NCBI GenBank assembly: GCA_964016885.1
Contig: OZ024745.1
Coordinates: 113,584,001 to 113,648,000 of the forward strand
Reading direction: 5' to 3'
Length of the DNA: 64,000 nucleotides
Source: Eledone cirrhosa
Lineage: Eukaryota
The notes below the pieces were generated by a model. It was not told the origin of the DNA, searched no databases, and saw nothing but the letters and a program-made list of their open reading frames with translations. Both the position numbers and the translations under genes were made by a program. This document shows, piece by piece, positions 12,986 to 62,522 of this stretch. Position 1 is the first letter of the stretch. Every line of letters begins with the position of its first letter.

Positions 12986-13193
12986 GTCAGCATTCAAGAC
13001 CAAACAAAAAAACGAGATGTTGAAGAGGGCTTCCTTTAACATACCGTCTTTTGTTCTACATTATGTCATCAATGGTCAAGATTGGCCTGAAGGTGATGAG
13101 GTATATCACAGCTGGATTAGCGTCCCCACATTACTTATAAATGGACGAGATGATACATTTGCCACGTTAGAGGATGCTAAGCTAATGAAAGCA
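12986..13193 (+). CDS. ABHD8: Internal coding exon of ABHD8-like alpha/beta hydrolase
   Basis: Acceptor tttatAG at 12984-85 and donor GTAAGT at 13194. Translation SAFKTKQ...FNIPSFVLHYVINGQDWPEGDEVYHSWISVPTLLINGRDDTF closely recalls ABHD8 (FNVSSFVL..M.GQYWPEGDEVYH...VP.LL..G..D.F) and includes the likely catalytic Asp. Ends in phase 0. Upstream exons were not found in the window. Confidence 0.88.
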
Positions 13194-13679
13194 GTAAGTA
13201 TTCTTCTATTAAAACAAATTTGAATTTAAATTTGATTGGTTGAAATTAAAAAGAATATTTGGAACGATATTGTTGAATTTTAAATATTGATCACGTTGAG
13301 ATGAACCTCAAACATGATATCACTATACATACGTTTTCTTAGAACTTATATAAGCTAAATGTCAATAATTTATTCATGTATTTCGAATATATTACCTTAA
13401 CGTCACTAATATGTTCCTATTACTACCGTAAATTTCTTTATCATAGCCATTGAGTATAAAGGAATTTGCGATATTATATCATCAAATTATATCATGAAGC
13501 AATAGTATTTTACATCTCTTTCTTGAAAGGAAATAGAAAACTCGCACCAATTTAGTCTAAGTGTAGTTTCTTTTTAATGAGCACAGGAAATTATTATAAG
13601 TTCCATTGCTCGACATGAATTGTTTTTAGAATATACCTGGCCAAACTTCTTCGGCTCTTTAGAACAGAGGTGATCCTGT

Positions 13680-14030
13680 CAAACATTCTTGTGACGCTAA
13701 ACTCCGCCAGTTGCAGACTGCGTATTAATATGTGATATCACTCTCCACAAAGTTCGATCACCAACAGCAGAGTTCAAAGAGCAAAGATCAAGTCCCTATA
13801 TTGACCTCGTTTAGCCATCGTTTTGGTTGCCGGCCCTTGCTTCTCTTACCAGCCAACCTTCCTTCCTGGCATAACCTACTCACACCACGAGTTGATCTTT
13901 TGATATGGCCGTATAGTTTGAGTATTCTTTACTTGACAATTGATGTAATTGGTCTAAGTTTGGTAATGTTGAGCAGTTCACTGATACAGATACGGTCGCT
14001 GAGCCGCTTGCCAGTCATAAGTCAAACATT
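13680..14030 (-). mobile_element. Degenerate RTE-clade LINE 3' fragment in the ABHD8 intron
   Basis: Minus-strand translation ILKLYGHIKRSTRGVSRLCQEGRLAGKRSKGRQPKRW matches the typical RTE C-terminus (L.Y/FGHI.R....EG...GKR..GR...RW). Confidence 0.7.
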
Positions 14031-14139
14031 ACAGTACTTTCAATTAATTGAAATATTCAAATATATAATCAGTTTATATGTTCATCAATCACTGTTTAAA
14101 ATGTTACTAATATCATTATTTTACTCTCATTGTTTTCAG

Positions 14140-17100
14140 ACTATCCACGGATCGAAGCTGGAAATAGTAGATGAGGCTAGCCATATGGTTATGTTGGAAG
14201 CGCCGGACAAAGTGAATAAACTTATCTTGGAATTTATTTGCTCACGTGGATCCCACAAACTACCTGATGTCAAAGAATTGGCAGAGGAAGGAATAGAAAC
14301 ACCACAAAGATCAACAGGGAACGACAGACAGTTGGAGCCATCACATGGAGGCAATGAGCAAGCACCATCTCCCGAAACCTCAACGCACAAATGGACCTCA
14401 GTACATACAGAAGCCACACCGGGGTATGCGGAAGAGGAAAGGGTGGAAGACAGTGAACATGAGGAGGACGAAGAGGAGGAAGAAGAAGAGGAATACGAAG
14501 AAGATAAAGATAACGAGGATGAAGGTGAAGTGATTATCACAATTCCGTCTAAATCAAGTCCCAGTCAAAAGGATGTAAATAACATTGGAAATACTGCAAG
14601 ATATAGGTGCAAATTAAAGAAAGGTGTTGTCACCGGTTACGACAATGCGAGTTATGATTTTGAAGAGTCAGAAGGAGGTTTTTATATTTATAGAGACCAG
14701 TATGGTCAGAGTCATTATGTGAGTGCAGAAGAGTTCCACGAACTGTTTGATAAATCCAACAAGCAAACGAACCGTACGGATGAAACAAAGGATGTGAACA
14801 ATATTGAGATTAGAAGTATGACTATACCATCATTTGGAGATATAAATATATTTGAAAATTGCAAAGAAGCTTATGTTAAAGAATCTCAAATAAATGACCC
14901 GAGAGCAACTACCATAGGTAAAACCAAAGCCATTGATATTAATATCTTACCGCACAATCTCTCGCAAAATAGCTCGAAATCTTCGAACGTAGTTAGATGT
15001 GAAGGACAAATTGAAGCGCATGCTTTATATCCAAATAACATGTCCTCTTTGGACGTAAAATGCAAGAAAAGCATGAATAAACAAGAAGTAGATATCAATA
15101 GTACGCGCAACCTTGGCAGCCGTACTGTAAACCCGCATCCATCTGTCACGTTGGCCTTGGGACGCAAACGGACTGACTCACTGGATTACCTTGGTGAAGA
15201 AGAGTTAATTATCATCACATCAACGAAAGACAAGGAAAACAATTCTATGTTTTTAAAAGAATCTTCCCATGACCGTGAGACATCATCAATAAATAATTCC
15301 TCTCAAAATTCTATTTCAAAAAAAGGCATGTTGCAACAAATACCAAACAAAAAAGGTGGCAATGAATCGGACTACAGTTCGTTAAATAATTCAAGATCAA
15401 AAGAGGTGCCTATTAAATGTCAGTCATTACATTCAGAATTAGTTCAAAAACTCAATGCAAAACTGAATGTGCAAGAAAGAAGACATATCCCGGAAGCAAA
15501 TGCTGGAACTAAAAAATCACACTCTCTAATATCTGAGGAAGAGTCTGTTGGGGTTCCTCATAGGGGTTCCTCATTCTTGGAATCCAGAAAGCTGATGGAA
15601 GAACATTTTTCAAAATCAGCGTTCAAAATGAGAATTGGTGGTCGTCCAGTTATTCCACCTCTTGGGGCCCCGATCTCTCAGTATAGATCGTCGCACGCTT
15701 CCCCAAGGACAACCCAAGAAGCTTTTACATTAGCTAGTAATTCGGAAAATGCGAAATATTCAAGAGATTCTAATAAGAGGTCCCCTTCATGTTGTGGCGA
15801 GTCAAGCGTTGTCACGAGTAGCCCATCTTTCTTACAATCGAAGAAAGCTATCAATGAACATTTTAGCAAAGTTGGTTTAAGAAATCCACATTTATCATCT
15901 CCTTTACCTGAGATTAAGCACTCACGAAATAGCTCTGATAACAAAACACCTCCAGTATTTAATTCAAGAAAGAAATCCAATGATATGAAATTATCGCCCA
16001 GCATTATACAACCAAATAATGAAAATATTAATATTGACGAAACAGAGAGTCCGTCCAAATCCGGTCTTAATCTAACTGAATGGGTAGAACATCATTTACA
16101 CACAATATCAGAAATTGGTTTACCAACTGATTCGAATCCACAAGAACGTAGTCCACAAATTAGGCGTAAAATGTCTTCAACAATAAACGATAAAGAAAAG
16201 AAAATTGAAAGGCAAATGGGTCTTAGTGGTTGGGCAGAAAAGCATCTAAAATTGATTTCCGACATCATTACACCACCAACAACTCCAGAGAAAACGAATT
16301 CTCGTAAAAGCAGTGAAAGTTCTTCTGTTGATAATGATGACAAAAATACTGACAATAGACTTCTATTAAGTCGATGGGCGGAAAAACATTTAAAATTGGT
16401 TTCAGAGCAAACTCCTGATATTGCTTCCTCTAAACATACGCCTAGAGCTACTTTAAGAAAAGTTACATGTAGTCAAAATGAAAATGATACGAATAAACCA
16501 TTGAGTGTGAGTGAGTGGGCAGAGAGACATGCTCGAAGAGTTTCCAGCATGGCTACTAATTCGCCAGGTGTTGCTACACCAAATGCAGAACAAATAATAA
16601 AGGAAAGTAAACCAGAACAGAAAAATGTACATAGTAATCTCAGTGTGAGTGAATGGGCGGAGAGACATGCTAGAAGACTTTCCAGCATGGCTACTAATTC
16701 GCCAGATGTTGCTACACCAAATGCAGAACAAATAATAAAGGAAAGTAAACCAGAACAGAAAAATGTACATAGTAATCTCAGTGTGAGTGAATGGGCGGAG
16801 AGACATGCTAGAAGACTTTCCAACATGGCTACTAATTCGCCAGATGTTGCTACACCAAATGCAGAACCTGAAAGAATGGAAGAAAGAAAATTTGAATTGC
16901 AAGATGTACATAGAAATATTAGTCTGAGTGAATGGGCGGAAAGACATGCCCGAAGAATTTCCAGCATGAATTCTAACTCTACAACCAGCTCTACACTTGA
17001 TTGGCCTCAAAATAATGATGAAACAAATATATGTGAATCTACTTCAACTATAAAAATGGCACAAAAGAATCTCAGTATTAAAAAGTGGGCAGAAAAACAT

Positions 17101-18864
17101 GTGTCTATCGTTTCTGAAACAACTTCTAATTTGAATTCTGGATCCAGTCGTAACTCTGTTGAGGGGAATAGTGAAGAGCCAAACCAACACACTGTCTCGG
17201 ATATAGAAAATAAACAGAAACCTATAATCAAAGAAATGGAAAATAAACAAGGTGTTTCTAATCTGACTTCTAATTTATCTGGTGAAATTATACATCACGA
17301 TTCAGTAGCGACTAAAGACCAATTGGAGGTGGAACAGAAAATTGGGACGAATATATCAAATAATCAAAGATTTCTAGCTGACATAGCAATAGCAGACAAA
17401 GCCGAACACGTTAGTTCAGACGGTGATTCGAATTTGGAACGTCATCATAAGACTATATCTATAGAAAATAAGCATGATATAGATACTTATGGCGTTGCGT
17501 GTCTTCCGGAATGTGAGCGTAATGTCTCACGGACGATCGATAAAAGATCTAAAGATGAAGATAATAGTAAAGGTAACGACATAAATGATCAAACAGAAAA
17601 AAAAGAATTAGTCTTACAAGAACAAAAGAACATCCCTGTCAATAAACAAGAAAATGTGGATGCTGTAGATAAATCAGAACTGAAACCAGATATACATCCC
17701 ACGGAGGAAGAAATCGGTCATATGGAAGCTAAGACTTCAAAACAGAAGCTACATGGCACATCTAGCACTATTTCTGAAATATGTGAAGTAACTGAAATAC
17801 CACATCTTAGCAATACAGATCTCAATAGGTGGGCAGAAAAGCACTTTCAAAAGATTCTAAATGCCCATTCACAATCTGATCCACAGAAGCAAACTACACA
17901 AATTCAATCAACGCACCCAATTTTCGAAGATGATGAAAGGCGAAATATAAATACGCATTTAAGCCAAGAGAATACCTCTGAAATTACATCTGAAAAGCTA
18001 GAGATTGCTTCAGCAAATAATCAAAATGAAATAAATCAAAATGAAAATAAACCACAGGCTAAGAAACTGAAGGCAAAAAGTCTTGAATCAGAATCTGATT
18101 CCAGTTCGGATATGTATTTTGAATCTTGCTCCGAACACATCCCCGAATCTTCATCCAATTCTCAAATTAACGAGTTTTGTAACCAGTCATTTGATAACGA
18201 TACAGGTGATATAATAAGTTTAGCAGATAATTCACTAGCTTCTGATATGACAGGCAGCAGATTAGTTTTCGATGACAATAGCAATATAGTTGATTCTGAT
18301 ACAGATATATATAATGATCAGTTTAACACGGACGAAATTAACATAAAACAATACGAGCCAAATCCAATATTAAAACACGAATCATTCACAAATCCGCAGT
18401 CATCCAGATCTGCTGCATCAAAGTTGCGTTCGGCTTGTACACAATTTAATCCTAATGAAAATATAATATCTAGCAGCAAACTCCAAACATTAGATACTGA
18501 AAATAGTCAGAAACTCTTAGAAAGTGGAACTACTGAAGCCTCCATAACAAATCAAACTGTGTTTCGCTTATATAAAAATGATAGCAATGCTACTTTAACG
18601 TCTAGCCATAACCCTAATCTTTCTTTAGAGGATGTAGATAACTTGAACACTACACAACGAAAACTTACACTCCCCTCTGAATGTGGATTGGACGCCTCAA
18701 ATTCTACCCAATCTCAAGCTACATCATTATCTGGAAACAATTTCGACAACACTGAGATAATACAGTGTCAGACAACATTGTCTTTTAGAGAGGAAAATGT
18801 TATCGAAACAGACAATGACAACAATCTGATCGATAATTCTGAAGACAAGAGTCACATTCGATAA
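14140..18864 (+). CDS. ABHD8: Giant terminal exon of the ABHD8-like gene: end of hydrolase fold plus ~1,540-aa low-complexity C-terminal extension
   Basis: Acceptor tgttttcAG at 14138-39 in phase 0, matching the previous exon. TIHGSKLEIVDEASHMVMLEAPDKVNKLILEF matches the ABHD8 catalytic-His segment (GSHMVMLE.P..VN.L..EF). The frame stays open for 4,725 nt to TAA at 18862-64, which is very unlikely by chance in such AT-rich DNA. Confidence 0.85.
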   Translation, partial: TIHGSKLEIVDEASHMVMLEAPDKVNKLILEFICSRGSHKLPDVKELAEEGIETPQRSTGNDRQLEPSHGGNEQAPSPETSTHKWTSVHTEATPGYAEEERVEDSEHEEDEEEEEEEEYEEDKDNEDEGEVIITIPSKSSPSQKDVNNIGNTARYRCKLKKGVVTGYDNASYDFEESEGGFYIYRDQYGQSHYVSAEEFHELFDKSNKQTNRTDETKDVNNIEIRSMTIPSFGDINIFENCKEAYVKESQINDPRATTIGKTKAIDINILPHNLSQNSSKSSNVVRCEGQIEAHALYPNNMSSLDVKCKKSMNKQEVDINSTRNLGSRTVNPHPSVTLALGRKRTDSLDYLGEEELIIITSTKDKENNSMFLKESSHDRETSSINNSSQNSISKKGMLQQIPNKKGGNESDYSSLNNSRSKEVPIKCQSLHSELVQKLNAKLNVQERRHIPEANAGTKKSHSLISEEESVGVPHRGSSFLESRKLMEEHFSKSAFKMRIGGRPVIPPLGAPISQYRSSHASPRTTQEAFTLASNSENAKYSRDSNKRSPSCCGESSVVTSSPSFLQSKKAINEHFSKVGLRNPHLSSPLPEIKHSRNSSDNKTPPVFNSRKKSNDMKLSPSIIQPNNENINIDETESPSKSGLNLTEWVEHHLHTISEIGLPTDSNPQERSPQIRRKMSSTINDKEKKIERQMGLSGWAEKHLKLISDIITPPTTPEKTNSRKSSESSSVDNDDKNTDNRLLLSRWAEKHLKLVSEQTPDIASSKHTPRATLRKVTCSQNENDTNKPLSVSEWAERHARRVSSMATNSPGVATPNAEQIIKESKPEQKNVHSNLSVSEWAERHARRLSSMATNSPDVATPNAEQIIKESKPEQKNVHSNLSVSEWAERHARRLSNMATNSPDVATPNAEPERMEERKFELQDVHRNISLSEWAERHARRISSMNSNSTTSSTLDWPQNNDETNICESTSTIKMAQKNLSIKKWAEKHVSIVSETTSNLNSGSSRNSVEGNSEEPNQHTVSDIENKQKPIIKEMENKQGVSNLTSNLSGEIIHHDSVATKDQLEVEQKIGTNISNNQRFLADIAIADKAEHVSSDGDSNLERHHKTISIENKHDIDTYGVACLPECERNVSRTIDKRSKDEDNSKGNDINDQTEKKELVLQEQKNIPVNKQENVDAVDKSELKPDIHPTEEEIGHMEAKTSKQKLHGTSSTISEICEVTEIPHLSNTDLNRWAEKHFQKILNAHSQSDPQKQTTQIQSTHPIFEDDERRNINTHLSQENTSEITSEKLEIASANNQNEINQNENKPQAKKLKAKSLESESDSSSDMYFESCSEHIPESSSNSQINEFCNQSFDNDTGDIISLADNSLASDMTGSRLVFDDNSNIVDSDTDIYNDQFNTDEINIKQYEPNPILKHESFTNPQSSRSAASKLRSACTQFNPNENIISSSKLQTLDTENSQKLLESGTTEASITNQTVFRLYKNDSNATLTSSHNPNLSLEDVDNLNTTQRKLTLPSECGLDASNSTQSQATSLSGNNFDNTEIIQCQTTLSFREENVIETDNDNNLIDNSEDKSHIR
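16504..16970 (+). repeat. Coding tandem repeat, 138-bp (46-aa) unit, about 3.4 copies
   Basis: Units start at 16504, 16642, 16780 and 16921 (the third unit is 141 bp). Protein unit: SVSEWAERHARRLSSMATNSPDVATPNAEQIIKESKPEQKNVHSNL. Confidence 0.95.
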
Positions 18865-19339
18865 GCTTCAACGTACAGCACTATGACTGCTAATAGTTGT
18901 ACAACAACATCCACAGTAACACAACTTGTGGCCAACGATAGCCCGCCAAGCATAAATGCATTTAAAGCGGACATAATATTAATATAAAAGAAACCTATGA
19001 GATTGCTTCTGTCTTAACGTACATTATTATCAGCATTTATTTATATAATTATTATTATTTTTATTATTATCATTATTACTGTTGTTATTATTAATGTTGT
19101 TGTTGTTACGACACTGGACTAATTCCAAAACTATCCTTCTTGTTACAATGTAATTATTATTTGTGGTGTCACAAGCATTCCATGTATATAAAAACAAATG
19201 TTATTATTTATAATAATAATAATAACAATAAATTATTTATTTATTTTGCCATATTTGGCGACGGATGAATGGACATTTGAGGACAAATTACAAAGCAGTA
19301 AGGCTTTTAGAAAATATAATATGATAAAAACAAGCATGA

Positions 19340-21440
19340 AAAACAACAGCTCAAGTATAAGGAAAGAAGACGACCCAGTAGCGGAACAACTACCATTCAG
19401 CAATCTGAAGAATCCTATGATCATGTATTACCCTTACGGCCAAGCGAAAATGGTCCCTCGTATATTTATTCTATGGTGAATGCTGAGTATAGGCCTCTTC
19501 CTTCCAGCCGTAACCTCCATTCACACCGACCTTTCAGCAAATATGCGAGAGGGCTGTGCATCTCTTTCTATGTATACTCAAGTTTCTCTCAAAGTGGTAC
19601 ATGAAAAAATTGATAACATGTAGACTGAGTAAAAAAGTATCTTAATCTCAGTCATTTTAATCTCCTCCAGTGGAAAAAATTGTTTTCCCATTCTGCTGCC
19701 AGTTGCTTTAAACGTTTGCCAAACTCTCAGCAAAGCGTTTGATATTTACTTGTAAATCGCAAAGGGGAGACTATCTAAAGCCGTCGATTTTTCCCTTGCA
19801 CAACCACTCAGTGCCTCCTGTATCTCAACTGTAGTTTAAAGTGCCGGTGAATCGATAACTCCACCGTTTCTAACTCGCCTGGAATCAAATAGCTCACGCT
19901 AATTATTATCTGTTAAGGTCCATCTTGCATTGGTTTTTCACCGTGGATCAGCCATACAGAATCGTGGAACGACATTCGCTCCCTAGTATCTAAATGCATG
20001 CTGCTTCCCGTCGAGGAAATAATCATATTCGTCACTGTCAAGTCAATGGCGATACCTACCCTCGTCTGATCTACTGACTCTCTCCCCTCTAATCTATTTT
20101 TCTCTATTATTTACTTTTTATTAAACTCTCTTTATTCTAATAGCTCTCTTCAAGGTTATCCTTTTATTGGCTGTTGGCGATCGCCCACCTAGTCATGTTA
20201 CTGTAGATTTTCATTGTCTTCCTAACCGACATCGCATCTATGTTTAGTGACTTCGGGTTCTTACACAAATAGCCCTTCTTCCCAACTGACTCCAGATCAG
20301 GTGTATTTATGTAACCTAAATTTAGGGGGAAAGGGATATGATAAGCGGAGCGAAGGTATTCTTACTATTCATCCAAGGATAGGGGCTAATCTGGTTTTCG
20401 ACATTTCTCAAGGGTTGGTTTTAACATTATGTGGATGACTTTCGATTTGAAATCCCCACATGAATAATTTCTGATGTCGTTCTTGAGATAAACTCATCGA
20501 TAATCTCGACTTGTATGCGTATGTCCTTTTCTTTCTCTAAGTTCTACGTAAATTTATCGTTTTATTACATCATTGTAGTTGAGAAGACTTGTAGTTGAAA
20601 TCGTTCATGTCCTTGCTCTTATTGTTGTTTCTGCATCCGTTTATGTTATGATCGGTGTACTTGTGGGCTGCTTTTTCTTTATTTGGGGTTTCAATTTTAT
20701 TGATTTTGTTTTTATGTATAAATGGTTCCTTGTTTCTATACTTTGTAGTTTTTCAGCTGTCAGTTTTACACCCTTGTCGTTGGTTTTCCTTTTATTCTTC
20801 TTCGCTCGTAGCATGATTATTTGTTTTTATCTTTCATTTCGACCTAGTTATGCGGGGGAAAATCAGAGTTAGATAGTTTGGAAATTGAGAATGTCAGCTG
20901 TATGCCATGCATGTTTGTTCTGTTGTGTTTGCATTACTCTTCTTTGTGTTGTTAGTATTGTAAATAATCATTACTTAGTTGGTGTGGAAGACGATTATCC
21001 GATGTCACTCTGATCGGTTTTAATGCCCCTTAGCCTGCTCTCTTACTGTGTTGCTTGGAATCACTGTTGCAGTTGTGCTTGCTGCCGTAGTTGATGTTAT
21101 GTTTGAAGTGTTAGACGAAAAGGAAACTTTTGCTGCTTAGCTTTTGTTGTGAGAAGGTGTTACCACATATGTAACCTGAGAACTCTATCACCCACAATGA
21201 GATACAGACGAAGATGATTAAGATGTAGGAAATCTTGTCTAAATCTGTTGTAGCTGGATAAGGATTTTATCCAAATTTCGATTTTACTTAGTGGTACTTG
21301 TTCACGTTCGGTATTCAGTCGCATTTCTCTCGGATAACATTACGATGGCAGCCATCAAATTTTTTTCGGCACATTCAACACCTTCACTGTCACTACTCAC
21401 TAGCTCCTGTATGTGCAATCGATGTCCCATATTACTTGTT
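19340..21440 (-). mobile_element. Heavily decayed Tx1-like LINE (ORF1 and ORF2 remnants)
   Basis: Minus strand near 19760-19830 reads ~VEIQEALSGCA..KSTALDSLPFAIY (cf. GKSPGLDGLPYELY in the better-preserved copies). Lys/Thr-rich ORF1-like remnants lie near 20600-21400. Confidence 0.6.
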
Positions 21441-21444
21441 GGGC

Positions 21445-22740
21445 TTTATGTGCTCTGGAGGTAGATGACATCAAGAACAAAAAGATGAAGGAATTGATAA
21501 GATCTGAATACATAAGAAGAGTAAGGAACATATTAAAATCACATCTAAATAGAAGGAATGTCATAAGTGCAGTAAATTGCCGAGTTGTGTCTATTATTAG
21601 GTACAGTGCGGGAATTCTGAAATGGAATGTTGCTGAACAAAAAGAAATGGATAGGAAGACTAGGAAGCTATTGACTATCTACAACATGTTCCACAAGAGG
21701 AGTGATGTCGATAAGACTCTACTTAAGGAGCTCTGAAGGTGGAAGAGGTCTTATCAGCATAGAGGACTGTGTTCAGATGGAGAAAAACAACCTGCACAAA
21801 TATGTTGCTGACAGTAGGGAGCCAATACTCAGAATTGTACGGAAGGAGAAGACAATAGACCAGGGGATGTCCAAGGAGGAAATAACAACAAGAAGGAAGA
21901 GCAACCTTCATGAAAAATCCCTTCATCGCACCTTCTTTAATAAATGGAATTTAGCGATCCACAGACATGGAACTGGTTAAAAAGAGGAAACCTTAAAAAA
22001 GCTACAGAAGGAATGCTAATGGCTGCACAAGAGCAAACCCTCAGAACGAAGTGGGTGAACCACCATATTGACAAGGAGGAGGCTAGCTCACTGTGTAGGA
22101 TCTGTGGAGAGAGAGAGAGGATACTGTGGCTCACATTGTATCCGAGTGTAAACATCTAGCCCAGACTCACTATAAAGGCTGGATACATGATGTGATAGGC
22201 AGGGTGATCCACTGGCACCTATGCAAAGTAAACAATTTACCACATTCTTTGAAGTGGTATGAGCATAAGCCAGAGTCGGTGATAGAAAACAATCAGGTGA
22301 AGGTGCTATGGGATTTTAAGATACAGACGGACAATAAATTAGAACACAATAGGCTTGACCTGGTGGTTTTGGAGAAGTAAAACTGATCGTGCCTGATTGT
22401 AGATGTAGCCTGCCCATTTGACACGAGAGTGCAAGAAAAGGAGAAGGAGAAAATTAACCGATACTAGGATTTAAAGTGGGAGTTAAAAAGAATTTGGGCC
22501 TGTCAGGAAATAAAGGTCGTCCCGATTGTCATAGGCGCACTAGGTACTATCTCAAAGCGTTTTCAAGAATGGTTAAAGAAGATTAGTCCAGCCCCGCTTT
22601 TTGGAACATTTCAAAAGGCATGCTGAATATCTGAGGTGGTGGCTTGATATTCATTTCAGCAAACCTTCCAGTTAAATAACATCAATGACTGAGACTCAAA
22701 GAATAATAATAATAATAATAATAGTAATAATAATAATAAT
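21445..22740 (+). mobile_element. 5'-truncated R4/Dong-like RLE non-LTR retrotransposon with (TAA)n tail
   Basis: EYIRRVRNILKSHLN, RLYL...EGGRGL, EGMLMAAQEQTLRT, CRICGE...HIVSEC...HD (zinc knuckle), LWDFKIQTD...NR.D.VV (RLE). Several frameshifts. (TAA)n at 22703-22740. Confidence 0.88.
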
Positions 22741-40483: not shown

Positions 40484-43010
40484 TATTAATATTATTATTA
40501 TTATAGTTGCATTTATCTTGCTTTATGTTCATACGAGTTATCACCAAGTCACAACCAGTGACCTCAAGAGACAACAAGGTCCGCCATGTTCAAGAAAGAA
40601 CATACATACTCACACATGCATCTTTAGTGTTTAGACTTGTGATGTACTTATATTGACAGAATCTTCCTTAGTATATGGGCAGTTCCCATTAGTACTATCT
40701 TTTGTATTTCTCCTATACGTGGGTTTCCTGGGATTTGCGATAAGTAATCATTAGACCCCTTAGGTATCATTCCCAGAGCGCCTACAACCACTGGTATTGT
40801 TTTAGTTCTCAATTTCCACATTTTTCCAATTTCTATCTCCAGGTCCTTATACTTGCTCAATTTTTCAAATGTTTTTATAGATACATTCTTATCTATTGGA
40901 ACAGACATATCAATTAGCAGGCATACCCTCTTTTTAAAGTCCTTCAATATTATATAAGGTCTATTTGCATCTATTTTTCGGTCTGTTTGGATGCTAAAGT
41001 TCCACAAGATTGAGATGTGATCTTTTTCAAGTATGGGAGGTGGTTGATGCTCCCACCAATTCTTTTGATGGGGCAGGTCAAAATGTTTACACATTATCCA
41101 ATGTATGTATTGTGCAGCTCTGTCATGCCTGTTTAGGTATTCGGTTGGAGCTATAGGACTGCACATTGAAATTATATGGTCAATGGTCTCTGGTTGTTTT
41201 TTGCATACACGGCATAATGGGCTGCATCCATTTTTTATTATGTTGGCTTGGTAATTTTTTGTTGGCAGACACTGATCTTGTGCTGATATAATCAGTCCTT
41301 CAGTCTCCGATTTCAGTCCAGAGGATGCCAACCACCGATGGGTTAAAGTTTTGTCAACATCAGGATTGTTAGCTCGCTCTGGGTATTTTCCATACAGAGG
41401 CTTTTCTTGCCATTTCTTAGCCAGTTTCTGTAGCAGTTCTTTCTTTGCAGTTACTTTTACCTGCTTTGCTTTTTCTGTGTTTTCCATTTCAGCAGTAAAT
41501 GGGACTTCTGAAATTTGTATTCCATTACTGTATCTTTGTGCATCTTTTGTAATGGAATATGATCTGTTGATGCTTTCGTGTTTCCAAACGAGTTTGATCA
41601 TCCAATCATGTGATTCCCTTAGATATGTAGATAATCCAATTGTTGCAGTTTTCAACGCAATGTCTAACTGGATTAACCCACGTCCTCCTTCTTTCCTAGG
41701 GAGATATTCTATCTATATCTGCCTTAGGGTGATGCATTCTGTGCACGGTTAAGAATTTTCGAATTTTTGTATCGAGCCTACGGATCTCTGTGCTTGACCA
41801 GTTGATGACATTGTAACTGTAGGTTACTACTGGTATGGCAAGCGTGTTTATGGTATCGATCCTATTCCTTGCATTCAATTCCGTTCTTAAGATTGCTCTT
41901 ACTCTGCGGTAACATTCCTTCCTTATCCTTTCCCTCATTGTCGAGTGCTTGATTCCGTCTCCTTCACAAACACCTAGATATTTGTAAGTTTTTTCTTGAT
42001 CAAGTTCTCTTATCACGTTCCCCCGATCAAGATTAATGTCTGAACTCTTCAGCAGCTTTCCTCTGGTGAACGTTGCTTTGGCGCATTTATCTAGTCCAAA
42101 CTCCATTTTAATGTCATCACTGAACTGCTCCACAGTGGATAATAGACCTTGCAATTGTTCATCATTTTTTGCAAATAGTTTCAGGTCATCCATGTAGAAC
42201 AAGTGATTAATGGTTTTGTCATAGACTTTATATCCATGTTTTGTTTCATTGAGCATTTTACTTAATGGTATAAGTGCGATGCAGAATAAAAGCGGTGATA
42301 AAGAGTCACCCTGAAAAATTCCACAATTAATATTAACTTCTCCAGCTTCCAGTGATTTTGTTTCACTTTTCAAAAGGAGGGTTGTTTTCCATGTCTTCAT
42401 ACTGAATGACAAAAACCTCCTGACAACGGGGGATATTTTGAAAATCTCTAAACATTTTTCAATCCAACTGTGTGGCAAACTATCGAATGCTTTTTTATAA
42501 TCTATCCAAGCAATCGATAGATTTTTGTGTCTATTATGACAATCTTCCAGTATCATTTTGTTAACCAAAAGCTGATACTTACAGCCATATGAGCCTCGTT
42601 TACACCCTTTCTGCTCAATGGGAAATAGGTCATTTGTTATCAGGTGGTCATATGTGTATTCAGTTAGGACTGATGTTAAAATTTTATACATTGTAGTCAA
42701 GCAAGTTATCGGTCTGTAATTTTTGGGATTGTTTGTCTCATCATTCTTCGGAAGCAGGAATGTAATGCCGTTAACTAGCCATGATGGTATCTTTTCTGGC
42801 CCCTTAACTATTTCATTGTAAAGTTGGGCTAACAGCTCATGAGACTCTGTGAAGGCATTTATCCAAAAGTTTTGTATTTTGTCTTTTCCTGGGGATTTCC
42901 ATTTGCTGGTTTTTCTTAGAGCCAAGCGCAACTGTTCAACTGTTATATTTTCCCATATTTGTTCCTCAAGGTGAGCTGTATCTTTCATTTGTCTGTCTAT
43001 CCATGGGGCA
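40484..43010 (-). mobile_element. 5'-truncated R4/Dong-like RLE LINE, young (one frameshift)
   Basis: ORF 42988-41696 is RT (KWKSPGKD, NYRPITCL, WIDYKKAFDS, GIFQGDSLSPLLF, FYMDDLKL). ORF 41655-40648 has the CRVC..ETIDHIISMC..RHD knuckle and RLE domain. (TAA)n-type tracts at both ends. Confidence 0.93.
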
Positions 43011-43024
43011 TGTATGTTATGAAC

Positions 43025-43077
<53 letters not shown>

Positions 43078-43079
<2 letters not shown>

Positions 43080-46000
43080 GGCGACCTACGTAGGAAATCG
43101 TATTATCGTGAGCTCCACAAAGGTTTGTTGTTTTCGTTTGTTTAAAATTGCCATTTATGGAAAACTTTTGTTTTTAAGTGTTTATAAGGTCACAAAATTT
43201 GCTTTCAGAAAAGGACACTCAAAAAGATTGGGCCACACCTTCCTCACAAACTAACACCTCACACCGACACCACCATTGTAAATATTACTACGTTTGCCAA
43301 CACTAAAAATATAAGCAGTAGCAATAATTTAAATTTATCTCATGCAGACATTCATTTTCCGACATTACCAATGACTGCAGGTGTTGAAGCCGCCACCCCC
43401 ACCACCACCACAGCGACAACAGAAACAAAAAAAATTAATATCTCGTGACATCGAAATAGATTCACCCAAAATCGACTCTTCCACACCGAACACCACAACT
43501 GAAACTAAAAATAACAATAACAAAAATAACAATAACAACAACAGCAACAACAACAATGAGAATAACCACACCGTGTCCTTTGCCGAAGCAGCCAAAATAT
43601 GCGAAGCAATACAGGTAACTCAGGAGGAATTAGATGAAGCCAAAAGAATGGTAAAGAAAGATGGGTACAGGGTCATCTTCACCCCCACCTAATAAAATGG
43701 AGCATCGGCGCCTATTAAACGTGTCTTATCGCATGATTAACGGCAACAAAGCCACGATCCGGTCTTTGGTGGACCACGACGGGCGCATGCTACTCGATCC
43801 CGGGCAAATGTGTGAAGCTTTTCAGCGACACTTCGCTCAGCTCTTCGGGGACAGCGGCGGCCCGGGTCGAGGGATGGACTTTAGTGTCTACCTCGACGGA
43901 CTGCCGTGGCTCTCGGCCACTGAGGCGGAGTATTGCGAAAAGCCGATAACAGCCGCTGAAGTACGGGAGGCAATGAATGGCTGCACAAGGGGTAAATCGC
44001 CTGGTTTGGATGGTCTGCTCTATGAACTTTACGTACAGATGCCAGACTTGTTCGGAGGCCTCTTGGCGGACGTCTACTGCAACTGGCAAGAGAACGGGAG
44101 AATTCCCAGCTCTGTGAGCCGAGGAGCTGTGGCGCTGCTGAGAAAGGATCCGAACAAGGGGGATAACATAGATAATTTCAGGCCCATAACTCTGCTAAAC
44201 ACAGAGTTCAGGATTTTGGCCAAGGTGCTAGCAAAGAGGTTGGCGCTTGTCGTTTGTGGTCTGGTGGGAGAGGCGCAGACATGTGCCATTCCCAACAGAT
44301 CCATCCACGACAACCTCCACCTCATGCGATACATTGTGGAGAGGGTAGCTAGGGAACCTGGCATGGGTGGGTCCTTGATCAATTTAGATCAGTCGAAAGC
44401 TTTCGATTCGGTCGACCATCGTTACCTAGCGGCAGTCCTGAGGGCGGCTGGCTTTGGGCCCGTCTTCAGAGGCTGGATCGCTGCCATGCACAGCGACATC
44501 TGCTCTGTGGTGAGAGTGAACGGTCACCTTTCGGAACCGTTCAACATCATGCGCTCGGTCCGCCAAGGATGTCCCCTCTCGTCCCTCTTGTACGTATTGA
44601 CTCTCGAGCCATTACTGCACAAACTGGAGACGTTGAGGGGAATCCCGCGCGAACTAGGATGCGGAAGATCCGTGTCAGCATATGCGGACAATGTCACCGT
44701 AGTGGTGTCGAACGCCAAACACATCGAGGCGATCGGCACTACACTAAGAGAATACGAAGCGGTGACAGGGGCAATGATCCATCTGGAAAAATCAGTGGGT
44801 CTGCAGCCAGGCACCTGGAGAGGCAGGTCCATGCCGTCGAACAGCGTCGTCGGGCGCTGGACGGACGGTCCGGTTAAATTGCTAGTGGTCTGGTTCGGTC
44901 CGGACCTCCAGACGGACAAAAACTGGGACGAGGTGACGAGCAGGGTGGCTTTTCTACCCAGAAATGGGCGGAGAGGAAGCTATATCTGAAAGGTCGAGCG
45001 GAGGTGGCTAACGCGTACATCGCGTCCGTCATCTACTACCGCCTGACCGTCGTACCTTGTCCTAACCCACGCCTGACTGCGCTGGAGCGTTTGCCCTTTT
45101 GCTTTTTGTGGAAGGGACGCGCTCCGATGGTCAGGCGGTCCATCTGCTGTCAACATCCGCTACGTGGAGGGTTTGGCATGCCGTGGCTGATGATGCGCAG
45201 ACATGCGCTCAGGCTACGACATCTCCACCTCTTCCTCGACAGTGATCAGGTGTGGTCGCCATTTGCTAGACGCATCTTTCCCCAGCTCGTCTCCTTGACG
45301 GAACTGCAGTCCTGGGTCAAGCGAAGACCGAGAGGGAGCGCTTGGAGACTGGCGCTCACAGCCCTCGAACAATCGGGCAATGTGATCGGTGGAAACTCCA
45401 CCTTGGCGTTCTATAGAGGATTGGTGGAGGGGAAGAGCGACGGCGTACTTGGGGAAACTCTAGGCGTCGACGAAAATCAACTAGCCAATCTCTTCGGAAG
45501 AACTTTCGGGCCAGGGCCTATGGACAACTTCCAGAAATCCCTAGCCTGGCAGTGCTACCGAGGAGCTTTGCCAGTTCGGGATAAACTCTACAGGCATGGA
45601 GGTGCTGTCAGCCGGGCATGTCCGAAATGCGTGCAGGGCGACGAAACCGTCCTGCACGCACTCGTCCAATGTCCGAGTATTGCTGACTTGTGGGTTTATG
45701 TCGAACACCTGCTGTCGCGTGTAGGACGGATCCAGCTATCAGCTGAGTTCATCGTGAGGATTTCCCCACCCTCTTCCTTTAGCCGGGAAGTTTTTATCTG
45801 TCTGGTGGCCATGGCGAAAGAGATAGTATGGTGGATACGTTTGAAAGGGCTGAAGACGAGCACTTACCTCTTCGGTGATGCCCTGATTAACTTTTTCAAA
45901 TTTCATTTGAAAAGGAAAATCAGGGTAGAGAGGGAAGTGCTCTCTTCCCAGCATTTTGTTGAAAGATGGGTGAGAGAAACAAGTATGGCCCGAGTGAATG

Positions 46001-46265
46001 GGCCTACACTGAGTATGTGTCTGTAAATTAAAGGTTGGAAAACTTCGAGAGGGCACTTGCCCTGGTGGTCAGGGTCACTGTGGCCTTTTAATGGGCTTTC
46101 TCCACAAATGTCCCTCGGAGGTCTGGGGAATTTTTCATTGTTATTTTTTGTTACATCCTGTTTTTGTTTTTTACACGCAGAAATGCCCATTTGTACCGTC
46201 CTGTATTTCCTGTACTGTCCTTAATTTCTACTTTATGTAAACCCTTGTGGTTAATAAAGAAAACA
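43078..46265 (+). mobile_element. Tx1-like LINE with large internal deletion (most of ORF1 and the whole APE lost)
   Basis: 5'UTR plus ORF1 start, joined near 43735 to the middle of ORF2 (GNKATIRSL.., GKSPGLDGL, NFRPITLLN, LDQSKAFD, RQGCPLS, AYADN, CPKC..ETVLHAL..C). Ends CCCTTGTGGTTAATAAAGAAAAC then (ATT)n. Confidence 0.9.
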
Positions 46266-57131: not shown

Positions 57132-60100
57132 TTAACAATCGGTGTCCTCAATAGGGAGGGGCGTTGACATGGGTCGCACACACCCCCGAAAAAATGTGCA
57201 ACCCTCCTCTTCAGGAGCACAAAGAGCGGGTGCTTCCTTCCTCTTCTCATTCTTCTCCTCTCTCACCAACAGGCTGATATAGAGAGAAGGCCCATTCACT
57301 CGGGCCATTCTCGCTACTTTCACCCACCTTTCATAAAACTTGCTGGGGTAGAGCACCTCTCTCTCCATTCTGATCCTTCTTCTAAAGTGGTACTTGAAAA
57401 AAAAGACCAGTTGTTGGCCGGAGAGATAGGTGTCTGACCTCAGCCCTTTCAACCTTGTCCACCACACAACTTCTTTCGCCATGGCTATCACACAGAGGAA
57501 AACCGCCTCTCCTTCGTTTTTGAAAGGGGGAGGCGGTTTGATCGTGACAATGTTCTCGGTGGTCAACCGGATTTGTCCCACCCGCGACAGTAGTCGTTCT
57601 ACATAGCCCCACAAGTCAGCAACGCCCGGGCTGTGTACGAATGCGTGTGCGACGGTTTCCTCGTCACGCACGCATCTTGGACAGATCTTCTTCGAGGGGT
57701 CCCTACCCGGCGCCCGTGTCTATAGAGCTTGTCCCGAACGGGTAGAGCTCCTCGGTAACATTGCCAAACCAGGGACTTTTGGAAGTTGTCCATCGGTCAA
57801 ACGTCCTACCGAAGACTGGCCAGCTCATCATCCTCCATGCCCAGAGCCTCTCCGAGAGCGTAGTCGCACTTACTGCGCACCAACCCTCTATAGGATGTTG
57901 AGGTTGAGTCTCCACTGATTGCCGGATCCGCTTGCCAGAGGGCCGTGAGCGCCTGGGCACATTGAATGTGCCAGTTGCCCACTTTTCTCGGTCTTTGCTT
58001 GACCCAGGATTGCAGCTCGGTGAGTGAGAGGAGTCTCGGAAAGGCTCGCCTCACAAACAGGGCCCACACCGGCTGACCGGTGAGGAATATCTGGAGGTGC
58101 CGTAGCCTTAATGCGTGTCTACGCATCGTCAGCCACGGCATCCCCAGCCCTCCGTTCGAAGAGTATTGACAGCAGATGGATCTTCTCACCAAAGGAGCCC
58201 GCTTCTTCCAAAGAAATCGGAAGAGCGCGCGCTCCATTTTGGCGAGTGTCTTCTCTGGGCAAGGCACGACGGTCAAGCGGTAGTAGATGACGGACGCTAT
58301 ATAAGCGTTCGCCACCTCCGCTCGACCTTTCAGGGATAGTTTGCACTCGGCCCACTTCTGGGCAATTGCAAACACCTTGCCCGTTACCTCGTCCCAGTTT
58401 TTCTCCACCTGGAGGTCCGGTCCGAACCAGACCCCGAGCAGCTTCACCAGTCCCTCCGTCCAGCGTCCGAGGATGCCGTCGGAGGGCATCGGTTTGCCCC
58501 TCCACGTCCCGAGTTGCAAACCGACGGACTTGTCCCGATTCAGCTTGGCTCCTGTGAACCTTTCATATTCCTCCAGTAAGGTACCGATCTCCCCGATTTC
58601 CGAGGCGCACGACACCGTTACTGTCACGTCATCGGCGTAGGCCGACACCGCTTTCCGCAATCCCGTTTCCAAGGGGATGCCCTGCAACAGCTCCAACTTC
58701 CGCAATAGTGGCTCGAGAGCCAGCACATACAGGAGGGAGGAGAGAGGGCATCCCTGACGGATGGATCGCGTGATTTGGAACGGCTCCGAGAGGTAGCCGT
58801 TCACCTTGACCCTCGAGCAGGTGTTGCTGCTGTGCATTGCAGCAATCCAGCCCCTGAAAACGGGTCCGAAGCCTGCGCCGCGAGCACCGCATCCAGGTAC
58901 CGATGGTCAACCCTATCAAACGCCTTAGATTGATCCAAGTTGATCAGGGCCCCACCAAAGCCGGGTTCATTCCCTACCCTTTCTACGATGTATCGCGTGA
59001 GGTGGAGGTTATCGTGTATGGACCTGGACGGGATTGCGCATGTCTGCGCTTCTCCCACCAGGTTCCCGACGACACGCGCCAACCTCTTCGCTAACACCTT
59101 GGCTAAAATCTTTAACTCTGTGTTTAGCAGAGTTATGGGCCTGAAGTTATCTATGTCAGCCCCCTTGTTCTCGTCCTTCCTCACCAGCGTGACTACGCCC
59201 TTGGTCACAGAACTGGGAATTCTCCCGTTCTGTTGCCAGTTGCAGTAGACCGCCTCGAGGAGACCGGAGAACAAGCCCGGCATCGCTACATAAAGTTCGT
59301 ATGGCAGACCATCGAGACTCGGAGATTTGCGTTTGCCGCATTGGCTCAGCGCTTCCCCTATTTCAGCGGCTGAAATCGGCCTCTCGCAAGACTTCGCCTC
59401 CCCGTCCGAGAGCCGCGGCAGACCGTCGAGGTATGGACCGAAATCCATGGCCCCACCCGGCCCGCCGCCCCTCCCGAACAGTCGTGCAAAGCGCCGTTGA
59501 AAGGCCGCGCTCATCCGCTCAGGTTCAAGGATCACGCGTCCATCCTGGTCCTTCAAAGACCGAATCGTGGACTTATTTCCACATTTTGCCTCTGTGACTC
59601 GGGCCCAGCTAACAGCTTTGGCTCCCTCGTTACCCAGAGCACGTATTTTACTCCTGACAACGCAGCCCTCGTGCTTCGCATCAAAGAACTGGTCTAGGGC
59701 CGTTCTTAACGCCAGCACGCCAGCCACGTTGCCCCTCCTAATCGCCTCTTCTACACTATTTATTAACTCCCTTTCAGTTCTATTCCTATCTGATGCTAAT
59801 TCCCGACTAAAACCTATCGATTCTATTCTAATTTCTCTCTTGAGAGAGCTCCACCACCTGCTGTTGACAATTGCCCCCGTCAAACTCTGCTTAACTAGTG
59901 TGCTAATCCGCTTACTGTAAGCTTTGTTTGTCGGTAAAGACAAGTTTAGCTTCCAGTAACCGGGTCCCTGTCTATGAGTTCTATCAAGGTTGACCACTCC
60001 GGTCACCAACTTGTGATCCGAATAGTCAACCTTGAACATTCGTGGACAGCTTAATATGTCCCTATCCTTATTTCTAACTAGGAACCTATCTAGGTACGAC

Positions 60101-60699
60101 CTAGATGTTCCGCTGAGATTAGTCCACGTCCACAGTGGCACAGTCAGAAAATCTAGTCGATATCTATCGGCCAGATCAAATCGGCCGATTAATCGTTTGA
60201 GGCTGTTACACCCCCCTCTATCGGGACATGCCCCTACATAGTCCCAACGTGCATCCAGAATACCATTCCAGTCCCCCACTAAAAGCAAGGAACGAGATGT
60301 TCCCAAGAAATTCTCCAGGCGTCGGAAGTAGTCCGGTCGCGGTGTCCCAGATGGGGCATACGCTGCCACCAGCCTGAAAGCTCCACCTTCACCACTGCCG
60401 ACGTCTAAAACCACCAGTCGACCCTCCGGGTCCAGGTGTACCTTCTGTGTGGCAAGACCCAGGTATTTTCGCAGCAGAACGACAACCCCACCCCTCGGCT
60501 GACAGAGAGATGCGTAGATCTCAAAGTCGTCGAAGATGGGGGCCAGTTGGCGCTCGCTGCTGATCCTGGACTCGCAAATAACCATTACAACCACTCTGTG
60601 CGACCTGAGGTCATTTAAGAGTTTGCCCTGTTTCCAGGACATCCCCAGGCCGCGTGCAATCACACATCCAACTCTTATATTGGCTATGTTGGTGCTCAA
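57132..60699 (-). pseudogene. Tx1-like ORF2 (APE-RT), frameshifted
   Basis: ORF pieces 60699-58801, 58837-57806, 57793-57599 and 57671-57132 are colinear with ORF2 of the 43-46 kb element. Confidence 0.92.
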
Positions 60700-60728
60700 G
60701 AGTTAAAAGGAAGAGGAAAGGAAATTAC

Positions 60729-62522
60729 TTACCTCTTCGTCTCCTGGGGACCAGGCTGCACAATTTCCATGGGGGTGTTGGAAGGGTTGTTTGGTGGGGT
60801 GGTGGTTTGTGGTGGGGTGGGGACATCAGTGTGTGGTGGGATTAGGGTGTTTGGTGGAGTGTGGGTGCCTGGTGTGGGGGTGGGGAAACATCTCAATAGG
60901 ACGCTGTTAAGTGGTTTGGTGCAGGTGGTCCCCACATGCATTGGATGGTTCTTTTTCAAAGTTACATAGGTTTCCGTTGGGACCCTAATCATCATTAGGT
61001 GCGGTTTGTTCGTTGCGTAGGTGAAAGTGATCCCTTCGGTTTTCACCGAAGGGTTATTTTATATTGCTTTCATCAAAGTTTTATTGTTCTTGTTAATGTA
61101 TGTATAGAGTTTTTGTTGTGTTGTGTTTGTTTTTGTTTGTTGTTCTTGTGCGTGTTTGCGTTTTGTAGTATGTGTTATGTTTTGGGGAGGGGTGGGTTTT
61201 TTTGTTTGTGATGTTTGTTCTGTTTGTGCTGGTGGTTGTCTGTTTGTAGCATTTTTGTTAATGTGGTGCCTTTTTTTTTCCTTTTCACGTGTTGAAAGGG
61301 TTCTCTTCCGTGTTGTTGAGGAGGGGTATATTTTGGGGTTTTGTTGTGGTTTCTTTTGTATTTGTTTTAGGTGGGGAGGGTTGGGTGGAACAGTGTTTTG
61401 TGTTGTTATTTTTGCGTGTTGTTGTGGTTGTTGTTGTTGTTGTTGTGGTGGTGGTGGTGGTAGTGGTGGTGGTGGTGATGGTTGTGTTGTTGTGTTCGGG
61501 GTTGACAGAAGAGCCTTTTTTTTTTTACGCGTTAATTGAGGACAGGCAGCCCTCAGGTGACCCCTGCTTAAGCAGTGGTAACATGACGGCCGCATTCCCT
61601 CCACTGAAATGTTTATATAAGTTAGCCCGTCCAGAGGCACGCGTTGTGGGATATTCGCTATTCGTTCTGGGCTCATTTGCACCAGAACTTCTACGCTGGT
61701 CCCACCAAATACACCTCCGGGGGACTTTCCTATTGAAATTATCCTGTCTTCATCAAAGTCAGTGATTCCACATAGTATCCACCAAATATTTACATTTGGT
61801 GTGATACTCATGATTTTTATTCTTTGCGTCCTTTTTCCCCTGTATGTGGGGAAAAAAGTGAAGCGGGGTGACACAATGGGTGATACCGAGTATTTTTGTG
61901 CTGTTGACTGGTTATTCATTAGCACCGAAATGCTACCAAACAGTTTTCCTTTTTGTATGAAGGTTATGTCCTTCATTGCATCTTTTAGAACCAGGACAAT
62001 TTCATTTTGTGATAATTGAGCTGGTTTTCTTGTTTCGTTCGATATTGTCCTGAAAACCACAGTTTTCAGGACAGCCTCTCTACATAATTCCTGTGGAGAT
62101 TTGTTGCTAAAAGCACCGTTTTCGCCAAAAGTCACGAATTGTTTTGCGTCTTGTAGTAGTTGTTTAGCTTTTGTTATGTCAATTGGCGTGTATAGTTCGG
62201 TTTTTTTTTACAGTCTGTGCGAACGTTGTTTTGGTGTTGTTGTCTTTTTTGTTGCTGTTGTTGTTGTCACTGTTGGTAATATTGTTCATGTTTTCCTTGC
62301 TGTTGCTATTGTTGCAGTTGTTGGTTGTGGTGTTATTGTCATTGTTCTTGTTGTTGGTGCTGGGATTATTTACCGGGTTTGGTTTCGTGGTTTCAATATT
62401 TTCAACGTTTTTCGATAATGCGAGGGGGGAAGGCTGCAAGCTTTGTACTCCTACCTTCCCTCCACCATTTTCTTAGTGAACGTGGCACTCACGACAGTGT
62501 GCGAGGTTGAAATGGCATCCAT
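60729..62522 (-). pseudogene. Tx1-like ORF1 (gag-like, zinc knuckle), interrupted
   Basis: Candidate ATG at 62522. N/T-rich N-terminus, core 62135-61059 with CX2CX4HX4C, P/Q/K/T-rich tail. Confidence 0.75.

Follow-up and report, generated by a model that had tools for sequence, protein, structure and literature searches.

ABHD8, an alpha/beta-hydrolase, carries an extra tail of 1,250-1,600 residues in octopuses and cuttlefish, and in Eledone cirrhosa this tail is encoded by one open last exon, located at 14140-18864 of the window. The window is the whole stretch of DNA analysed here, 64,000 nucleotides (nts) of contig OZ024745.1 (113,584,001 to 113,648,000), and the gene lies on its forward (+) strand; positions without a contig label refer to it. 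The tail is built around a repeated W-x-E-x-H motif that is predicted to be helical and that probably works as a multivalent docking element.

Structure and expression of the gene

ABHD8 is a single-copy gene of five exons. Exons 1-3, located by comparison with a full-length relative, lie 10.7-16.1 kb upstream of the window (G000:C5:113567924-113568263, 113569567-113569903 and 113573320-113573487), and intron 2 interrupts GHSYG, the motif around Ser224. Exon 4 (12986-13193) carries the catalytic Asp338 at 13152-13154 and stops before GTAAGT. It is followed by a phase-0 GT-AG intron of 946 nts (13194-14139), which harbours a high-copy repeat at about 13690-14023 and ends with the acceptor TTTTCAG. 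The last coding exon comprises 1,574 codons and the stop codon TAA (18862-18864); its beginning (14140-14235) encodes the end of the hydrolase fold with the catalytic His366 at 14182-14184. The probable 3′ UTR covers 18865-19600, with AATAAA at 19227, and its end is undefined because contigs of run X4 extend beyond 19600. All five exons are bordered by GT-AG, their phases match, and together they encode 1,925 aa with no internal stop. A search with exon 4 matched one locus in the 3.0-Gb genome (G000), and a genome search found no second copy of the tail in it.

The sequence-only reading of this DNA had described about 1,540 open codons after the catalytic-His helix, in a single 4.7-kb exon that is rich in S, N, E, K and T and has an acidic run near the start of the tail. 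These claims proved accurate: the frame is intact over 14140-18864 and is spliced to the hydrolase exons, 1,539 aa follow Glu386 (1,559 follow the catalytic His), and the exon translation past residue 40 contains S 13.7, E 10.3, N 9.3, K 7.3 and T 6.6%. The acidic run is a Glu run at about 14461-14504, which is present in octopods and absent in cuttlefish. The other five frames of the exon contain 38-201 stops, where composition predicts about 112, and no open frame in 2,000 shuffles exceeded 183 codons, indicating that the 1,574-codon frame is not due to chance. The 137 open codons upstream of 14140 were rejected as coding sequence, being intronic according to the spliced contig described below.

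Transcript evidence from the species itself comes from one shallow run, X4, in pieces, in which uncovered stretches are uninformative. X4, whose type is unrecorded, is inferred to be an RNA run; unique intron sequence is without cover in X4, and intron and exon are covered alike in runs X1-X3 (one sample). In X4, a 256-nt contig passes from 13193 straight into 14140 across the GT..AG intron, its shorter side being 94 letters long; the join is absent from X1-X3. As for transcripts that would end or be spliced shortly after about 14260, this contig continues to 14301, and further X4 pieces cover 14331-14998, 15602-15775, 15856-16178, 17337-17546 and 17934-19600, the last running past the stop codon. 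None of the X4 pieces listed falls at about 16200-17100. In cuttlefish, the complete 1,647-aa protein is encoded without introns in each of seven Logan contigs, which are 5.4-6.8 kb long. Since genomic gene calls of the same clusters stop at the octopod intron positions, these contigs are spliced as well as tail-bearing. Stops in the tails of orthologues were looked for, and the tail stays open in all the full ones.

At 14717, X4 alone has A>G (A in X1-X3), which replaces TAT by TGT and gives Tyr544Cys at an H-Y that is conserved in the beta module described below. This could be A-to-I recoding, seen in one contig of depth below 3 from a different sample. Two other differences between runs, 17407 C>A (His to Asn; X3 and X4) and 18652 A>G (Thr to Ala; X3), lie in spacers and are allele-like.

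The transposable elements around the gene had been described as having broken ORFs, and the scan of the window is consistent with this. Among 12 other long ORFs scanned, the four that bear a reverse transcriptase (RT) are partial or lie beside overlapping ORFs in other frames. LINE-type RT ORFs lie in pieces at 41696-46026 and 57132-62207, the latter element having an endonuclease and, split over two frames, an RT. A stretch at 21480-22630 (+) was judged by eye to be retroelement-like and decayed, and a TA microsatellite at about 1480-2290 is placed between inverted copies of one roughly 170-nt sequence. Elsewhere in the genome, armadillo repeats were seen in a 2,705-codon open frame (L020, G000:C1:196019552), which we take to resemble the giant APC exon, and another open frame (L018, G000:C1:203306158) has about 30 tandem GNHSP units and is possibly a simple repeat. 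One armadillo exon occurs, including its flanks, on two contigs (L033 and L034, G000:C2:356780679 and C4:193431653), either as a duplication or as an assembly copy.

An ABHD8 core with a cephalopod extension

By each defining feature tested, comparison of sequences classifies the protein as ABHD8, with a new architecture. The closest named relatives in the similarity search were ABHD8, and PF00561 matched the cuttlefish orthologue P0004 with E 5.7e-22. With the cuttlefish protein as query, the core was 50-57% identical to molluscan and 38-47% identical to vertebrate ABHD8, and 228 of the 240 core positions are shared between cuttlefish and Eledone. S224, D338 and H366 do not vary among six aligned sequences, which include those of scallop, sea hare, amphioxus and a mammal. 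ABHD8 is described, in the available part of PMC13625376, as having no HxxxxD motif; the catalytic-His site here reads H-M-V-M-L-E, as in mammal, and HxxxxD is absent at that site.

An early end past the His helix is typical of ABHD8 without defining it, and this is where the protein departs, with its 1,559 further residues. That the fold of vertebrate ABHD8 ends near the C-terminus, as the sequence-only reading stated, agrees with 79 vertebrate-type matches, in which a median of 41 residues (maximum 139) follows the His. The corresponding number is 1,272-1,621 in cephalopods versus 28-112 in 25 other molluscs. Total length is about 420-490 aa in vertebrates and 366-888 aa in bivalves, gastropods and chitons, compared with 1,925 aa here, 1,988 aa in Argonauta and 1,647 aa in cuttlefish; the Octopus sinensis model is a fragment. 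Other molluscs extend an N-terminal insert instead, so that the core starts at about residue 226-648 versus about 155 here. Six ABHD8s from scallop, chiton, abalone, oyster and vent snail (P0020, P0021, P0022, P0027, P0032 and P0036) have a 500-650-aa N-terminal region before the core.

None of the 25 named bivalve, gastropod and chiton ABHD8s, from which a partial Lottia record was left out, carries the tail, and 21 of them have a basic, KS-rich C-terminal end. A long tail is thus not standard in mollusc ABHD8, a point on which the proposal of a lineage-specific extension depended. The proposal stands in that the tail is cephalopod-restricted in the sequences examined, but it does not hold for this species alone, because octopods and cuttlefish share the tail. 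Nautilus and squid were absent from all search results. In the aligned tail, 754 of 1,373 positions are identical to P0003, an octopod-type protein, 625 of 1,351 to Argonauta hians and 332 of 1,099 to Sepia. Profiles of the tail, the repeat and the module gave no match at E<0.65 among 117 other matches of the similarity search with the cuttlefish protein (115 non-cephalopod). The tail profile found two proteins, both octopod-type, among 1.84 billion representatives, a search with gaps in its negative result, as the cuttlefish and Argonauta proteins escaped it, probably through being clustered under other representatives; a further search, with the same gaps, gave one match among 1,219 candidates.

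In databases the tail ORF is known only as automatic models that are uncharacterised, truncated or misnamed. GAB1597344.1 (Argonauta hians, 'uncharacterized') and CAE1309496.1 (Sepia pharaonis, 'ABHD8', N-terminally cut) are orthologues with the tail, and XP_036356245.1 (P0138, Octopus sinensis, 'STAT B-like') corresponds to the last 842 aa of the tail, so that its name looks wrong from the alignment. No published description of the tail or repeat was found among the literature matches listed, nor is there one in the available parts of PMC13625376, PMC8744458, PMC11063763 and PMC8389839, and a term search of PMC13652810 gave no passage on either in the text accessible. We found no paper on ABHD8 in molluscs; the cephalopod papers among the matches listed do not mention ABHD8, and the string 'WAERH' returned only unrelated papers among the matches listed.

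Conserved blocks and W-x-E-x-H repeats of the tail

The tail consists, in order, of a Tyr-rich module, an RxRxxS block, two EHFSK helices, the W repeats and an FDDNSN motif, embedded in poorly conserved spacers. When the tail is aligned with cuttlefish P0004, four blocks selected from that alignment are identical at 77 of 100 positions, and the remaining tail at 204 of 896. The repeats and conserved blocks do not appear in the sequence-only reading, which had taken the tail for a disordered scaffold. This description fits to the extent that most of the tail is predicted to be unstructured, but not in the sense of mere low complexity, since an ordered array of motifs and one predicted folded module are present.

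The module (14596-14775) is predicted to form a small beta-sheet plus helix over 55 residues, with YDNASY and Y-x-Y-x-DQYG-x-x-HY conserved and 20 of 33 core residues identical to cuttlefish. Its model has a pLDDT of 73 and a pTM of 0.53. The best fold match has Z 5.6 (7s5j, rmsd 2.3, 57 aligned), SH3 and Tudor rows follow at Z about 4-4.9, and the best Foldseek E is 0.2; the modelled fold is thus weakly SH3/Tudor-like. The next block, VTLALGRKRTDSLDYLGEEELIIIT (15145-15219), is identical to cuttlefish at 21 of 25 positions and contains an RxRxxS site, possibly a kinase or 14-3-3 site. Helical motif A, SSFLESRKLMEEHFSK (15568-15630), and its paralogue, motif B, SSPSFLQSKKAINEHFSKVGL (15817-15879), are each identical at 18 of 21 positions to cuttlefish, P0004 in the case of B, and each is a helix in the model. 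The motif FDDNSN[ILV]V (18268-18291) occurs in all five other cephalopod sequences.

The repeat has the consensus [LVI]xxW-A-E-[RK]-H-x-x-x-[IV] and is present in nine copies here. Eight of them, spaced 46-51 aa, form an array at 16066-17115 with Trp codons at 16081, 16231, 16375, 16516, 16654, 16792, 16933 and 17086; the ninth, found in octopods only, lies apart at 17815-17859 (Trp codon 17830). Nine of the 11 Trp of the last exon fall within repeats. There are seven copies in P0003, at least seven in O. sinensis, 11 in Argonauta and four in cuttlefish. Argonauta copies lie 42-57 residues apart, and the intervals in cuttlefish are 54, about 2 x 50 and 58, so that spacers have 42-58 residues except for the double-length gap of cuttlefish and the distant last octopod copy. 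Positions outside the search pattern are nearly fixed: of 41 copies from six sequences (43 rows minus two non-repeat cuttlefish rows), all have L, V or I at -3, 38 have A at +1, 39 have E at +2 and 39 have I or V at +8, although the copies are not independent and many are young.

In an AlphaFold2 model of 842 tail residues, pLDDT was below 50 for 672, and helices were formed at motifs A and B and at all eight repeats included; the tail models are based on three-row alignments. The hydrophobic moment is 0.46-0.77 in all nine repeats, compared with a 90th percentile of 0.43 for the tail. No family or structure match to the repeat was found in Pfam or the PDB, nor did the profile searches give a match outside cephalopods. 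Pfam gave nothing above its cut-off for the tail, either with whole proteins or with 11 pieces, and the best E values in PDB sequence searches with the tail, 0.06 and 0.31, are at chance level. An Atlas search gave up to 0.83 for hydrolase fragments and 0.76 for the repeat region, under useful scores. An excess of kinase sites is absent in two of the six sequences (P0003 and P0138).

The newest copies come from an in-frame triplication of 138 bp (16504-16968, 3.3 units). Between young copies 1 and 2 there are five silent changes, all within the motif, and two coding ones (P = 0.005, with 0.204 as the share of silent sites). The other two pairs have 32-34 coding and 0-5 silent differences; the large number of coding differences arises because the spacer of the third copy is different.

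Function and origin of the tail

We judge it fairly probable that the repeats let one ABHD8 molecule bind the same partner several times over, with a valence tuned by duplication, and that the hydrolase is carried to the resulting complex. Fixed short helices in freely varying spacers are the pattern expected where a region offers several docking sites and folds when it is bound. Each repeat would begin with a helix cap, L-S-x-x-E-W, and continue as an amphipathic helix, one face of which would carry positions -3, W, A, H and +8. The short motifs would likely fold into helices upon binding, and avidity would provide the strength, tuned by a repeat number of four in cuttlefish and 7-11 in octopods; an [RK][RK]xS site closing the expanded octopod copies may add phospho-control. 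No substrate is known for human ABHD8, which is expressed in brain and testis (PMC8389839, available part) and is reported to be a scaffold or adaptor that recruits zDHHC12 to NLRP3 (PMC13625376, a review, available part). The docking reading fits this adaptor role, which the tail may extend by bringing the hydrolase domain to a partner complex. The tail itself likely arose when the old last exon was lengthened beyond its stop codon and then duplicated internally. Two signs point this way: no donor gene was found in the sequences compared, and SRGSHKLP shows a faint likeness to the basic KS-rich end of the 21 molluscs.

A more specific proposal, to which we give a low probability, is that the helices imitate the one by which Axin binds beta-catenin and that the tail is a multivalent beta-catenin binder, similar to the repeats of the giant APC exon. 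The tail repeats, predicted to be short amphipathic helices centred on a His, may share the register of the Axin helix (PF08833, PDB 1QZ7), and APC-type scaffolds have their repeats inside one very large exon. Octopus Axin reads ILEEHCSRI, and its register appears to recur in motif A (LMEEHFSKS), motif B (AINEHFSKV; VIQEHFSKV in cuttlefish) and the W repeats. These motifs are the top-scoring 9-mers in four of four tails, with uncorrected P = 0.007-0.04 from 300 shuffles, but the comparison was picked after the motif had been seen. The +8 position of the repeat aligns to V478 of AXIN1, an interface residue (PMC11063763, available part). However, PF08833, which finds Axin itself (E 5.5e-12, control), did not find the ABHD8 locus at E<=10 and matched none of the 11 tail pieces, and a profile comparison with hhalign gave a probability of 4%. 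Motif B has N or Q at the acidic position of Axin. Its predicted complex with three separate beta-catenin exon pieces scored 0.02, unlike the calibration, and counts neither for nor against the proposal. The tail also differs from Axin in being attached to a hydrolase. An 'Axin-like' pattern count in the tails was discarded as circular. A role as phospho-signalling platform, in which the repeats dock PP2A-B56 (LxxIxE-type) and carry PKA-type sites, is quite unlikely in our estimate. The B56-type pattern occurs 7-15 times in five full tails versus 1.5-2.9 times in shuffles, and LxxWxE and the following LxxISE both fit it; yet the excess stems from the repeat itself and is thus a single observation with a loose pattern, and only one of the four cuttlefish repeats retains the second motif. 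B56 binds extended peptides with acidic flanks, unlike the tail repeats, which are predicted helices followed by basic residues.

Binding to an actin or microtubule lattice, with the even 42-58-residue spacing serving as a ruler, is unlikely. The regularity seen in Eledone, Argonauta and cuttlefish also follows from tandem duplication; a helix followed by [LA][KR]x[VI] resembles, as we take it, the anatomy of WH2 or thymosin, but neither Pfam family matched whole proteins or pieces. We regard it as very unlikely that the tail began as an old gene of its own that was joined to ABHD8, or that it works alone after cleavage, although it has its own predicted folded module and ordered motif series and a free-standing 842-aa model of its end exists in O. 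sinensis. That model starts at an internal Met aligning within the repeat array, there is no intron or second start between the His helix and the tail, the junction between the two is highly conserved, and the profile searches described above found no relative outside cephalopods, nor was there a second copy in this genome. Least credible is that the tail is tolerated bulk without specific function or an annotation artefact. The spacers are only 23% identical to cuttlefish and three of three variants between runs alter a residue, but every full sequence keeps the frame open, the motif blocks of octopods and cuttlefish agree at 77% of positions, silent changes are in excess in the young copies and the 13193/14140 join is spliced, and we consider this reading largely refuted.

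Significance

Long disordered last exons are common in animals, which makes the tail less surprising; the presence of an unnamed and repeatedly amplified motif raises its interest. The enzyme core was kept 95% constant while one putative docking motif was added and amplified. In the broadest form of the docking reading, which is tentative and which we hold to be rather doubtful as a whole, the W-x-E-x-H helix would be a new class of docking motif, built in coleoids and still being amplified, by which an orphan, brain-type lipid hydrolase became a giant scaffold with a valence of 4 to 11, possibly gripping beta-catenin by Axin mimicry. A 15-residue repeat peptide with W and H point controls would be a bait for naming the partner and the pathway. 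The tail is a clear protein novelty of coleoid cephalopods, which gene-family counts miss and databases split or misname.
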